A DNA stretch of 64,000 nucleotides, from IMG/VR virus record IMGVR_UViG_2895427314_000002, positions 27,646 through 91,645 of that record, one strand, 5' to 3'. The notes beneath the pieces are model-generated. The model did no database searches and was not told the DNA's origin. It saw only the letters and a list, made by a program, of their open reading frames with translations. Below, piece by piece: positions 4,554 to 27,739 of this stretch; the stretch's first letter is position 1; the number at the start of each line of letters is the position of its first letter. The translations under genes were made by a program, and so were the position numbers. The stretch comes from a virus. Taxonomy: Duplodnaviria; Caudoviricetes.

Positions 4554-4861
4554 CCTACACCCGCCTGACCCACCTCCACGGATGCTTCGACCCCAGCCGG
4601 GAGTACACCGTCGAAGCCAGCATCATGATCCAGGACGAGCAGCAGACCAGCCAGGGCTTGCGCGCGGTGCTCACCCTCGACGACGGCACCGCCCTGATGA
4701 CCGCGCTCGTAGAGCCGCCTCTGTACGCGGAGGTGGGCGCCGACCGGCTCCTGCCGAGCGAGGACAGGCTGCGGTTCACCGGCCGCCTCGACCTGGAGGA
4801 GAACGAGCCGCGCCTGATCGTGCAGACCGTGCACGACCTCTCGAAGAGGGACACGCGGTGA
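4550..4861 (+). CDS. OB-fold-like hypothetical protein
   Basis: LTLDDGT...LRFTGRLD pattern resembles OB-fold domains. Confidence 0.55.
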   Translation: MTYTRLTHLHGCFDPSREYTVEASIMIQDEQQTSQGLRAVLTLDDGTALMTALVEPPLYAEVGADRLLPSEDRLRFTGRLDLEENEPRLIVQTVHDLSKRDTR

Positions 4862-5322
4862 CCGAGCAGAACATTCCCCAGCCGTACGACCCACTCGCCG
4901 TCTCACACGCCAAGCAGGCCATCACTGCCGCCCTCCACGAAGACGACGACACCACGGCCCAACTCGTCGCCACGATCGTGAACGAGACCGGCCTGCCCGG
5001 CATCCTCGATGCCGTCTTTGTGTGGTGCGCAACCATCCACGCCCGCATCGGGCTCCCGTTCGGCGTCATACTCACCCTCACCTACATCCACCCGGAGACC
5101 GGGGAACCGATCCCCGAGACGGAGGCAGACCCCGCGCTCATCTGGGCCAGCCACGTCATCCAGGCCTACGTGGCCCGCGACAAGCCCCGGTTCGACAGTC
5201 TGCTCAAGGACATGCTGGACGGCGATCCCGGACGGCTCGCCGCCCAGCTCATCACGATGGTCGAGCACGTGGCCGCGCACATCAGGCTCGCCAGCCTGCG
5301 CAGCACAGCGGAGCTGTCGTGA
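4858..5322 (+). CDS. hypothetical protein
   Basis: Coupled ORF. Confidence 0.7.
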   Translation: MTEQNIPQPYDPLAVSHAKQAITAALHEDDDTTAQLVATIVNETGLPGILDAVFVWCATIHARIGLPFGVILTLTYIHPETGEPIPETEADPALIWASHVIQAYVARDKPRFDSLLKDMLDGDPGRLAAQLITMVEHVAAHIRLASLRSTAELS

Positions 5323-7079
5323 CGCACCATGTCGTCCAGATGAGCGGCGGCCTGGGATCGTTCTGGGCCGCCGTCTTCGCCGTCCTGGTATACGGCAAGG
5401 AGAACGTCGTCCTTCTGTTCGCCGACACCCTGTGGGAACACCCCGACACGTACCGCTTCCTAGGGCAGGCCAGCGAACACCTCGACATCACCCCGATCAT
5501 CGTGTGCGACGGCCGCAACCCGTTCCAGGTGTATTTCGACCAGCACTTCCTCGGAAACTCCCGGATCGCGCCGTGCACGAAGGAACTCAAGCAGAAGCCC
5601 TGCCGCCGCTGGCTGGAGGAGCACTGCGACCCGGCCGACACCATCCTGTACGTCGGCCTCGACGCGGCCGAGGAGCGCCGCCGGCCCGGCGTCATCAAGG
5701 GATGGACGCCGTGGCGAGTCGAGTTCCCCCTGATGGACGACAAGACCTGGGACAAGAAGCGGATGAAGACCGAGTGCGCCAAGCTCGGCATCACCATCCC
5801 CCGCATGTACGAACTGGGGTTCTCCCACAACAACTGCTTGCACCCGGACACCCGCTACATCACGAGCGAGGGCATCAAGACCCTCCGCGAGACGTGCGGA
5901 CAGACCGTCAAGGTCCTGGGCCGCGGCGGCGGCTGGCGGGAGGCGGAGATCCGGTCGTTCGGCGAGCAGCCCACTTACGAGCTGCGGCTGCGACGGTACG
6001 ACGACGAGATGACCGTCATCACCACGGGGGACCATCTCTGGCCTGTGCGCAAGCGGGCTGGACGGAACGCCCACGAGTTCCGGCACACGCTCGTGCTCAG
6101 TGCAGGAGACCGCATCGCGGGCATGTATGGCCACGTCCGGAGCAACGTGGTGCCGTCCACGATCGGCATCATGGCCGGGTTCACCTTCGGCGACGGCACC
6201 GCTCCCGCCGTCAACGGGCAGAACCAGCCGGCCCGCGCCTATCTGTGTGGCGACAAGGACAAGGCGATGCTGCCGTACTTCGCGGGCTGCCGGATCAAGG
6301 AGGACAGACCCCGTGTCCTGAAGGTCCTGGACCTGCCGAGGTCGTGGAAGCAACCCCCGCCGCTGGAGGAATCCCAGTCGTACCTGTACGGATGGCTGGC
6401 CGGGTACTTCGCCGCTGACGGCAGCATGAGCGGCGGCAGCGCGGTCATCTACTCGGCGAACCAAGCCCGGCTCGAGACCGTGCAAGATGTGGCGGCCAGG
6501 ATTGGCATCGCGACGGGCCGCATCCGCACCGCGCACCGGACCGGGTACAACACCGAGCGGAGCCCGATCTACAGCGTGACGCTGGTGATGGCCACGCTCC
6601 GGGAGGACTTCTTCCTCCTGCCCCACCACCGGGAGAAGTTCCTCGCCCGCGAGAATCCCCAACGACCAGGTGACTGGCAAGTGGTCGAGGTCGTCCCCAC
6701 CGGGCGTGTCGAGGAGGTCATGTGCGCGGTCGTCCCTGACGGCCACGTGTTCACCCTCGACGGCAACCTGCTCACGCACAACTGCCAGGGCAGCTGTGTC
6801 CGGGCGGGACAGGCTCAGTGGCTTCTCACGCTCCGCGAGTTCCCGGAGCGGTACGCCCTGGCCGAGGCCGAGGAGCAGCGCTTCCGCGAGGAGCACGGCA
6901 AGGACGTGTCGATCCTCACCGAAACCGTGAACGGCGCGAAGTGCACGCTCACGCTCAGGAAGCTGCGGCTGCGCGCGGAGGTGGGCGTGATCCGTCTCCT
7001 CGCGCCTGGATCTGTTCAGCGCCGTCGTCACATGACCGTGAAGACAGAGCCGTTGTTCGAGATGGGGTGCCCGGCATGA
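5319..7079 (+). CDS. PAPS-reductase/PP-loop family protein interrupted by an intein
   Basis: SGGLGS PP-loop, FADTLWE, CTKELK, GFSHNN|CQGSCVRAG. Confidence 0.85.
   Translation: MTHHVVQMSGGLGSFWAAVFAVLVYGKENVVLLFADTLWEHPDTYRFLGQASEHLDITPIIVCDGRNPFQVYFDQHFLGNSRIAPCTKELKQKPCRRWLEEHCDPADTILYVGLDAAEERRRPGVIKGWTPWRVEFPLMDDKTWDKKRMKTECAKLGITIPRMYELGFSHNNCLHPDTRYITSEGIKTLRETCGQTVKVLGRGGGWREAEIRSFGEQPTYELRLRRYDDEMTVITTGDHLWPVRKRAGRNAHEFRHTLVLSAGDRIAGMYGHVRSNVVPSTIGIMAGFTFGDGTAPAVNGQNQPARAYLCGDKDKAMLPYFAGCRIKEDRPRVLKVLDLPRSWKQPPPLEESQSYLYGWLAGYFAADGSMSGGSAVIYSANQARLETVQDVAARIGIATGRIRTAHRTGYNTERSPIYSVTLVMATLREDFFLLPHHREKFLARENPQRPGDWQVVEVVPTGRVEEVMCAVVPDGHVFTLDGNLLTHNCQGSCVRAGQAQWLLTLREFPERYALAEAEEQRFREEHGKDVSILTETVNGAKCTLTLRKLRLRAEVGVIRLLAPGSVQRRRHMTVKTEPLFEMGCPA
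5835..6782 (+). mobile_element. Intein (316 aa) with LAGLIDADG homing endonuclease
   Basis: Starts CLHPDT, TTGDHLW block B, IMAGFTFGDG and WLAGYFAADGS motifs, ends LLTHN followed by Cys. Confidence 0.93.
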
Positions 7080-18645: not shown

Positions 18646-18870
18646 ATGGAGATCCGACCGCGCGTCCGCATCGTCGGCGCCGAACGCCACCAGCTCGCTC
18701 AGCACCTGGCCAGCCGCTACCAGGCGGGGGAATCCGTCCGCGCGCTCTCCCTCGCGATCGGCCGATCGTACGGGTTCGTCCACACGCTGCTGGAGGAGGC
18801 GAGCGTCGAGCTGCGCCACCGCGGCGGCAACCAGCGCAGCCGGCCCGCGGCGGCCGGGGCAGCGAAGTGA
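18646..18870 (+). CDS. small actinobacterial HTH protein
   Basis: YQAGESVRALS..IGRSYGFVH.LL.EA.V.LR.RGG. Confidence 0.85.
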   Translation: MEIRPRVRIVGAERHQLAQHLASRYQAGESVRALSLAIGRSYGFVHTLLEEASVELRHRGGNQRSRPAAAGAAK

Positions 18871-19022
18871 CGCCCGCCGAGATCGCCGCCACGAAGGCGG
18901 CAGAGCTGCTGGACAAGGCCGAGGAATACATCCTCGACGAGGGGGCCGTGAAGAACTGCGTGGCCATCGCGGACGGCTGGATGCGGCTGCACCTGGCTAT
19001 CACGACCGGTGCTGTCAGGTGA
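18867..19022 (+). CDS. small protein whose 3' end was replaced by the element insertion
   Basis: Removing the element restores ...ITTGAIMRFSPD* (stop at 20386-20388). Confidence 0.6.
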   Translation: MTPAEIAATKAAELLDKAEEYILDEGAVKNCVAIADGWMRLHLAITTGAVR

Positions 19023-19208
19023 CGCGGCATCTGGCCGCGTGCCAACCAAAGTGGCCAAACAATTGGCCGCTGCCATCGGAAGTGGCCAGCGCGGTAGCCG
19101 AGCGTACGGAATGGACCTTCGCCGTGGGAGTGCATGACTTCCGCCCTGACGCTACGTAGAGTAATCTTTTCCTGACTTTCGGTTGCTCTACGTACAGGAG
19201 ACAATGCC

Positions 19209-19589
19209 TTGACGTCACGATCACTCCGCACCCTGGCCACACTGGCGCTGGCCGCCACGGCCGCCACCAGCGTCGCCACCCCCGCCACCGCCGAAACCGA
19301 CGCCCCGTACGCGCGGGCCGCCGCCTCCGTTGCTGCGGACGGCAACCTGATCCACGGCAAGAACATCGTCTCCACCAGGCGCACCGCCACCGGCCGCTAC
19401 TGCGTCCAGGTCGACGACCGGATCAACCTGTCCAACGCGGTCATCCACGTCACCGTCCACGGGTCTCGAATTGGGAGCGCCGTCACTCCCTCCCCTAACT
19501 GCGGCAACGCCGCCGACACCATCGCCGTGAGCATCGTCACCTACCAAGGCAATTCGGGGGACACCGGCTTCTACCTGTCCATCTCCTAA
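19209..19589 (+). CDS. secreted small beta-rich protein (element cargo)
   Basis: Signal peptide; two Cys; AGGAGA RBS. Confidence 0.8.
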   Translation: MTSRSLRTLATLALAATAATSVATPATAETDAPYARAAASVAADGNLIHGKNIVSTRRTATGRYCVQVDDRINLSNAVIHVTVHGSRIGSAVTPSPNCGNAADTIAVSIVTYQGNSGDTGFYLSIS

Positions 19590-19742
19590 CCGAACTCCCC
19601 GCCGACAGCAGGCAGGGCTTGCAGGCGCGCACAGCTCCGACGCGCCACCGCGTTGGGAGCTGTGCGCGCTACTTGGGCGATGGCTGCTTCTCGCAATCGC
19701 GATTGACCGTAAGTCACCCCGAGAAGAGGAAGGAAACTCTCC

Positions 19743-20162
19743 GTGACGCATGCTGCTACTCACCGGGCGATACACGAGGCGTTCTCGCGCAGGAATTTCG
19801 ATGAAGTGGCTGCGAAGCAGCACCCAAGCACCGAATACCGCGATCGGGCGCGACAACTCACCGCCAACGGTCCGGCCGAGTCCATCGACTACCTGAAGGG
19901 GTGGACGACTGCCTTCTCCGACGCGGTCTTCGCCGATGGGATGTACCTGGACGGCACCGATCACAGCGTCTCGTTCTGCACGATGCGAGGCACAAACGAC
20001 GGCCCGTTTGGACCGTTTCCGGCCACCGGCAGCACGGTCGGGGTGCCGTTGTGTGAGGTCTTCCACTACGACGCAGACGGCCAGGTCATCGGCGCTGATC
20101 TCTTCTATGACGCAACGGCGTTCCTGGTTCAACTCGGCCACGCAGAAGCTCCGCCAGCCTGA
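19743..20162 (+). CDS. SnoaL-like/NTF2 ester cyclase family protein (element cargo)
   Basis: AFSD...RGTNDGPFG.FPATG..V....CEV...D.DG.V...DLFYD...L.QLG. Confidence 0.85.
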   Translation: MTHAATHRAIHEAFSRRNFDEVAAKQHPSTEYRDRARQLTANGPAESIDYLKGWTTAFSDAVFADGMYLDGTDHSVSFCTMRGTNDGPFGPFPATGSTVGVPLCEVFHYDADGQVIGADLFYDATAFLVQLGHAEAPPA

Positions 20163-20449
20163 GTTCGCGAGCACGACCGGGGACCTCGTATACCGTGTCC
20201 GGCTCCATCTTCGGCGAGGGGTGCCATCCCTCAAAGGACCCATCTCGCCGGAGATTGGCCACTTTGGATGGCAACGCATCGCCCGCCGACTGTGCCATCC
20301 AAAGTGGCCAGCGCGAGGTCACGCCATGCTCAAAGGCCAGATCAGATGTCACCTGACAGGTGCGATCATGCGCTTCTCGCCGGACTGACCAGTCCTCGGG
20401 ATGCAAATGGCGGAGCCCGCCGACAACACGGCGGGCTCCAGACCGTCAA

Positions 20450-27524: not shown

Positions 27525-27739
27525 GCGACACCGTGAAGTTCCGTGTCTGGTCCGAGATCCGGGACATCAGGAACAGCTACGACGAAGAGATCACCGACTC
27601 GGAGATCTCGGTCGCGGACTGGGCCGCCATGACGCAGGCCGAGCGTGATGAGCTCGGCGAGCGGATCTATCAGGAGTACGTCGAGAACCGTGTCGGGGGC
27701 GCGGCCCAGCCGGTCGAGCCTACGGGCGGTGGTGCGTGA
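27521..27739 (+). CDS. small acidic hypothetical protein
   Basis: Coupled ORF. Confidence 0.7.
   Translation: MSDTVKFRVWSEIRDIRNSYDEEITDSEISVADWAAMTQAERDELGERIYQEYVENRVGGAAQPVEPTGGGA

Follow-up and report, generated by a model that had tools for sequence, protein, structure and literature searches.

A transposase-less cargo cassette in a Nonomuraea prophage and its probable derivation from a Tn7-like transposon lineage

Most work on Tn7-like transposons has concerned large autonomous elements that use dedicated attachment sites. The ends of Tn7 are all that is needed in cis if the Tns proteins come in trans. Mini-element assays illustrate this sufficiency of the ends (PMC11837452, PMC11014353), and degraded natural Tn7-like elements, with their tns genes deleted and their ends intact, have led to the suggestion of movement in trans (PMC11837452). 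The TnsE pathway of Tn7 inserts into conjugal plasmids and replicating phage DNA (PMC11837452; PMC12153342). A survey of the cargo of Tn7-like elements includes an Actinobacteria-dominated clade without a characterised member, and the words "non-autonomous" and "nonautonomous" are absent from its text (Benler et al. 2021, PMC8649781). Transposase-less cargo derivatives are known for families of insertion sequences (IS) and for Tn3, as mobile insertion cassettes (MICs), miniature inverted-repeat transposable elements (MITEs) and Tn3-derived inverted-repeat miniature elements (TIMEs) (PMC4133298, PMC5444012, PMC4337579). Here we describe a 1.35-kb element in a Caudoviricetes provirus, IMG/VR record IMGVR_UViG_2895427314_000002, positions 27,646 to 91,645 of which (64,000 nucleotides, hereafter the window) were analyzed. 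The element is real, and we take it, with a probability of about 0.8, to be a non-autonomous cargo-carrying derivative, that is a mobile insertion cassette, of a Tn7-like lineage of Nonomuraea and its relatives. A limited literature search returned no description of a natural miniature, cargo-swapping cassette family of Tn7 type or of its clustering in prophages; the family is apparently undescribed, while the kind itself is known from IS and Tn3 elements.

The element is a true insertion. In-silico removal of it together with one GGTGC gives a 56-codon open reading frame (ORF) ending in ...TGAIMRFSPD*, the displaced 3′ end of which now lies at 20364-20388. An earlier note on this DNA, made from the sequence alone, had stated that excision restores this reading frame and had proposed to look for the empty site in related prophages; one such prophage (L112) carries the same ORF end uninterrupted, with one GGTGC at the junction, and so holds the exact empty site. 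The tips, the 5-bp target-site duplication and the positions of an 18-bp motif given in that note were all read in the sequence, the interval 19008-20363 being the element plus both duplications (Table 1). The motif starts at 19040 (+), 19071 (+), 20293 (+) and 20256 (-); allowing at most one mismatch, there are no matches in the 64-kb window besides these four, vs. 0.00 expected (100 shuffles), and neither the motif nor the 11-bp tip occurs again in the whole 91,645-bp record. Two degenerate motif copies had also been proposed, of which the one near 20322 is borne out as a family-conserved second right-end site (R2) and the one near 20222 is weak and unconserved.

The element has the characters of Tn7-like ends, namely TGT...ACA termini, a 5-bp duplication and two different multi-site ends. 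As in Tn7 and Tn7-like transposons, the cargo is variable and the ends are asymmetric, with sites of about 20 bp that are packed beside tnsA and spread out at the other end. The ends are compact (about 90 and 115 bp). Counted from the tip, L-type sites start at 7, 27 and 58, the second and third being separated by a half-site; R-type sites start at 7, 37 and 86, with an opposite-orientation site at 49-66. The 18-19-bp sites are putative protein-binding sites, judged by their concerted change between subtypes (see below). The conserved opposite-orientation site of the right end is a difference from Tn7-like elements; it is present in every member of the family, autonomous elements included, and the mixed orientation, which the earlier note had singled out as unusual, is therefore a family property. 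Unlike Tn7-like transposons, the window element lacks transposition genes, and members of its family range from about 0.09 to 4.4 kb. Its interior holds just the two genes named in the earlier note, for a secreted protein and a SnoaL-like protein, with no transposase gene present. The product of cargo gene 1 matched no Pfam family, and DNA homologues of the gene (68-77% identity) occur across many Nonomuraea genomes; cargo gene 2 matched PF07366 (E 4.6e-10) and PF12680 (E 6.5e-8). The hairpin between the two genes is a possible terminator without a T-run. The GC content of the element is 63.8%, vs. 68.8% for the window.

Table 1. Coordinates of the element, its surroundings and related units (window positions unless a genome or locus is named)
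Feature	Position	Strand	Remarks
Phage HTH_58 regulator gene	18646..18870	+	directly upstream of the interrupted ORF
Interrupted small phage ORF	18867..19025	+	last seven codons IMRFSPD replaced by VR-stop
Left target-site duplication copy	19008..19012	.	GGTGC; single GGTGC in the L112 empty site
Whole non-autonomous element	19013..20358	+	1,346 bp, L-type to R-type end
L-type terminal repeat	19013..19036	+	tip TGTCAGGTGAC, five bases, ATCTGGCC
Terminal site L1	19019-19036	+	starts 6 bp inside the tip; kept in all family members
Site L2	19039..19057	+	from motif search and family alignment
Half-site between L2 and L3	19058..19068	+	3′ end TTGGCC; family-conserved
Site L3	19070..19088	+	from motif search and family alignment
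Cargo gene 1	19209..19589	+	126 aa, signal-peptide-like N-terminus; called gene in host assembly
Hairpin between cargo genes	19625..19669	.	perfect 14-bp stem
Cargo gene 2	19743..20162	+	139 aa, SnoaL-like; called gene in host assembly
Site R3	20256..20273	-	86-103 bp from right tip, normal inward orientation
Site R2′	20293..20310	+	opposite orientation, overlaps R2; position family-conserved, autonomous elements included
Site R2	20305..20322	-	degenerate copy, family-conserved
R-type terminal repeat (tip plus terminal site R1)	20335..20358	-	inverted copy of the left
Right target-site duplication copy	20359..20363	.	GGTGC
Autonomous-type unit	G481:C15:483678-488949		5.1-5.3 kb
Autonomous-type unit	G370:C291:961-6019		5.1-5.3 kb
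Prophage copy, window	end of small ORF
Prophage copy, G009	about 100 bp past small ORF		different cargo
Prophage copy, G001	about 1 kb from HTH_58 operon
Prophage copy, G100	L078:17855-17963		R-type tip abuts HTH_58 ribosome-binding site, same base as in G004:C217
Prophage copy, G004:C217	L066:100-188		R-type tip abuts HTH_58 ribosome-binding site, same base as in G100

Other copies of the ends around different cargo, which the earlier note had proposed to look for, were found, with 5-bp duplications of their own. A 24-nt end pattern, scanned over 185,579 species with one genome each, hit 22 places, comprising 19 in Nonomuraea, one in Streptosporangium and two apparent chance matches; tips with 0-1 mismatch are present in about 20 of 110 Nonomuraea species genomes. 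Eight complete copies of 0.65-4.4 kb have eight different perfect 5-bp duplications (GGTGC, CCGGC, GCCGC, CTCGG, GCGGC, CCAAG, CGAGA, and CTGGC). Complete Nonomuraea copies besides that of the window include those of 655, 862, 952, 978, and 1,959 bp, each with its own perfect duplication, and decayed copies measure about 92, 241, 764, 964, 1,034, and 1,328 bp. Between copies the shared DNA is confined to the ends (about 80 nt of the L-type and 110-140 nt of the R-type), which are unlike each other and each conserved from copy to copy, and the interiors are unrelated: cargo comprises EF-hand, BP74_N, histidine phosphatase, NmrA-like plus TetR regulator or orphan ORFs, or nothing. No shared target motif was seen in the flanks of the eight insertions, and the family differs from Tn7-like transposons in having no evident fixed attachment site. 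The family has transposon ends plus a duplication around transposase-free DNA, in several copies, as is characteristic of a mobile insertion cassette or MITE. As with MICs, MITEs and Tn3 TIMEs, the ends surround one or two passenger genes, no transposase is present and the cargo varies by copy; gene-less miniatures coexist with the cargo-bearing forms in both cases, and mobilization in trans is presumed. The cited MIC, MITE and TIME cases, in contrast, derive from IS or Tn3 elements, whereas the present family comes from a multi-protein Tn7-like system and has ends that are long, asymmetric and multi-site. It resembles laboratory mini-Tn7, for which nothing but the ends is required in cis, and the degraded Tn7-like elements, which keep intact ends without their tns genes, but the degraded cases are single copies, vs. 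a cargo-varied family in many species here.

Beyond the complete and decayed copies there are 16 unpaired ends, whose interiors (up to 18 kb each) hold no common gene; they contain a two-component system, TnpB, AraC, STAND NTPases, a multicopper oxidase, an aldo-keto reductase, an IS110 transposase, a beta-lactamase-fold protein and glutamine synthetase, and are probably solo ends or remnants. A recurrent tip-like 22-mer was set aside as it falls within the coding sequence of an unrelated IS of 1.3 kb. In public phage and plasmid collections, megablast with a 3.5-kb region around the element gave no match and blastn with the element yielded nothing beyond chance matches to cargo gene 1; in viral contigs, pattern scans returned only single, chance-like matches, and a metagenome pattern scan gave two matches, both without subterminal sites.

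A second, more distant subtype of the family, with tip TGTCAGGTCTC, is present in other genomes of the taxonomic family to which Nonomuraea belongs. In this subtype all sites, at both ends and including the inverted one, start with GTCTC, vs. GTGAC or GTGCC in the subtype of the window element (W-type). Such a concerted change would be the pattern expected from co-evolution with one DNA-binding protein. A 1,673-bp copy of the second subtype (G343) has a duplication that reads TCTCG on the locus strand and thus CGAGA from L to R, and carries a 425-aa orphan ORF; this ORF is not evidently a transposase, matching no Pfam family and having only 12 single-copy homologues. The copy in G009 (L098:610-1471) shows the same A-to-G change in both tips (TGTCGGGTGAC) with the duplication still perfect, a sign that a third tip subtype may exist. 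The window-element subtype is also represented by an L-type end at L241:1-1524 (G445:C1, a 9-Mb genome of the same taxonomic family), with a large gene directly behind it that looks, on inspection by eye, like one for an S9 prolyl-oligopeptidase.

The transposition genes tied to such ends are those of a Tn7-like system. In G173, three contigs joined by exact 127-bp overlaps give a 4,371-bp copy with an L-type and an R-type end and the duplication CTGGC; it carries an alpha/beta hydrolase gene, a weakly TnsA-like ORF and a tnsB that breaks off near residue 341, a deletion having removed its remainder as far as the R-type end. The part of this tnsB that surrounds the first catalytic aspartate shares 72% identity with residues 272-340 of a TnsB of Tn7-like type from Nonomuraea (E 6e-29), and used as a query the fragment retrieved full-length genes, 87-90% identical, in G481 and G370. 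There they belong to two units of about 5 kb in which an L-type end, tnsA-like, tnsB, tnsC (shown in G370) and tniQ-like genes and an R-type end follow one another, the gene order of Tn7-like elements. The tnsA-like product is 52% identical to a protein matching PF08722, the tnsB products (727-731 aa) have HTH_32 and Mu-transpos_C domains, and the last 149 residues of the TniB-type TnsC of G370 match a protein of the TniB family at 54% identity (E 3e-50). The tniQ-like gene ends about 87 bp from the tip in units of this type, which explains in part why the R-type end is long and conserved. End profiles built only from four Nonomuraea cassettes locate the ends of the G481 and G370 elements in the right place and on the right strand, with E 1.4e-6 and 2.3e-5 for the R-type and 4.6e-4 and 2.3e-3 for the L-type; once the second subtype is added to the profiles, these values fall to between 1e-13 and 1e-18. 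Because ends of the family layout enclose tnsA-like, tnsB and tniQ-like genes in G481 and G370, with tnsC shown in G370, the parent is predicted to be a Tn7-like transposon with tnsA, tnsB, tnsC and tniQ, one of the candidates named in the earlier note, whose overall interpretation is supported. Each of the three findings that the note would have taken as a refutation (no further copies of the ends, no empty-site allele, no transposase associated with such ends) was checked, and each check came out in favor of its reading.

Several other Nonomuraea TnsB lineages, as well as rve-domain genes from five Nonomuraea genomes, were fetched and found to be without family ends. A Tn7-like element of G104 (L136) has a similar site layout and a weak R-type profile match (E 0.003-0.008), and is treated as a distant relative only. 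Its unit (L136:1202-7411, G104:C46) contains tnsA, tnsB, tnsC and two consecutive TniQ genes with an end-like site cluster between them, and may represent nested or tandem elements.

By analogy with Tn7, TnsB would bind the arrays of 18-19-bp sites and assemble a transpososome; TnsA and TnsB would be supplied in trans by an autonomous relative and activated through the TnsC ATPase and a TniQ-type target selector. The cassette would then be cut out and pasted by 5-bp staggered joining, producing the GGTGC duplication in the 3′ end of the small phage ORF, and the prophage would gain the genes for the secreted and the SnoaL-like protein. Mobilization in trans and present-day activity are plausible because the window copy is intact and Tn7 ends suffice in cis.

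Several observations weigh against this derivation. The W-type ends are only 50-58% identical to those of the G481 and G370 elements over 112 nt, and these two elements lack clean 5-bp duplications and have slightly degenerate right tips, for which reason they may be inactive. No rve-type transposase was matched in the whole provirus even at E 1. An autonomous element with GTGAC/GTGCC sites was not found among 110 Nonomuraea species and about 400 genomes of its taxonomic family, the host assembly lying outside this search; likewise, no same-host autonomous partner with matching ends, such as a mobile insertion cassette or MITE would have, was found in that set. It is possible, if somewhat doubtful, that the cassette is a fossil whose Tn7-like parent is gone and which is immobile in its current host. 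The lack of a parent of matching site subtype in the genomes searched fits such a history, as do the imperfect look of the autonomous relatives and the many family copies that are decayed or reduced to solo ends beside ordinary host genes. However, the perfect 11-bp tips and duplication, the full set of intact sites and the two open cargo genes of the window element have the look of a recent event, and the parent search covered one genome per species, with the host assembly outside it.

Other origins can be judged against the same evidence. Tn5053/Tn402-type transposons (TniA, TniB, TniQ and a resolvase, as opposed to a TnsA-containing Tn7-like set), which the earlier note had also entertained as parents, likewise have ends starting with TGTC, 5-bp duplications and repeated subterminal sites, and they reside in at least 10 Nonomuraea genomes (TniB E ~1e-77). 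The ends of these Nonomuraea elements, however, start with TGTCACTTCTCGAAG and have different repeats, the end profiles gave zero matches in ten such loci, and the lineage of the two autonomous elements, and of the transposase remnant inside a family copy, is one with a tnsA-like gene; a Tn5053/Tn402-type parent is thus very improbable. Even less probable is a mover from another DDE system, be it IS21 (IstA/IstB), a Mu-like transposase or a transposase encoded by the phage. TG/CA ends with several subterminal sites are known in IS21 and Mu too and several copies sit in prophages, but Nonomuraea IS21-type loci are without family ends, which removes the IS21 candidate of the earlier note, the missing rve match in the provirus counts here as well, and ten of the large provirus ORFs code either for unknown proteins or for those of methylase, DUF5131, regulator, YqaJ, RecT and PAPS-reductase type. 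The Mu DDE_2 model (PF02914) had no matches, and since the controls of that search stayed silent too, it carries no information. That the two genes arrived by recombination or moron exchange, the terminal repeats being incidental, is hardly credible: the site does lie in a variable phage region, with a 409-bp extra segment nearby in L112, but the junctions are exact, excision gives the empty allele to the base with one GGTGC left, and seven other copies have 5-bp duplications of their own.

With derivation from a Tn7-like lineage as the preferred reading, the family indicates that a Tn7-like system also yields many tiny transposase-less cassettes with one or two different genes each. Its cassettes reach phage genomes and so provide a concrete mechanism for the origin of some prophage accessory genes, the two site subtypes offer a natural test of how TnsB recognizes its end sites, and the ends are defined well enough for use as mini-elements in actinomycete genetics.

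The association of the cassettes with prophages exceeds chance. With the L112 empty-site region as query, many Nonomuraea genomes proved to contain related prophage loci, and in five of 13 such loci a family element lies no more than about 1.5 kb from the HTH_58 operon (Table 1); the distance is 1.8 kb for a sixth copy (G004:C14), in a further related prophage. About 6 of some 32 copies or solo ends are thus in prophages of this kind, which make up <1% of a 10-14-Mb genome, and with respect to the phage 5 of the 6 prophage copies face the same way. The G100 and G004:C217 insertions may be one ancestral event; the R-type end of the G100 copy has its last 17 bp duplicated. The proposal of the earlier note that such elements load cargo into prophages gains support from this enrichment, which may stem from directed targeting, from a variable and dispensable region that tolerates insertions or from the spread of already loaded phages; tolerance or common ancestry may account for it with no targeting involved. 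The TnsE pathway is a precedent for Tn7-type transposition into phage DNA, as would befit cassettes enriched in related prophages, but differs in that no tnsE homologue was identified here. We consider it unlikely, though worth stating, that the Tn7-like lineage actively targets the early regulatory region of one temperate Nonomuraea phage family, with the cassettes as a dedicated gene-loading route. Such a route, which we regard as equally speculative, would rely on a TniQ-type selector or on some property of phage DNA during replication, and would turn chromosomal genes into phage accessory genes that spread between species. If the enrichment does reflect targeting, it would be a new target-selection behavior for this class of transposon.

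The slot just past the small ORF varies among members of the phage family. L112 carries 409 additional bp there (L112:4416-4823 vs. window 20390-20410) that are absent from the window phage, and other relatives have 450-790 bp of unrelated DNA at the same position. The phage family resides in Nonomuraea, since the empty-site provirus L112 matches part of the Nonomuraea wenchangensis genome (G109:C9) at 100% identity. The provirus of the window, about 93% complete at 91,645 bp, occupies approximately 313.6-405.3 kb of a 614-kb contig in assembly GCA_008086045.1 (VSEY01). Elsewhere in the window, the PAPS-reductase and LAGLIDADG-type domains combined in a 753-aa ORF at 4818-7076 suggest that an intein or homing endonuclease has inserted into a DNA-modification gene of the phage. 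A provirus gene upstream of the window (G000:18956-21907; L193:956-3907) has a 984-aa product with BTAD, NB-ARC and TPR domains, a SARP/STAND-type regulator unusual for a phage.

Two further repeats were seen in the Nonomuraea genomes. Within the gene-less 655-bp copy of G001, about 125 bp (L067:2458-2583) recur in many of these genomes away from family ends and appear to be a second, unrelated short repeat family. A Tn5053-like element of 3.8-4.7 kb (L101-L110, e.g., L102:6064-9861) is present in at least 10 Nonomuraea species at 88-97% identity.

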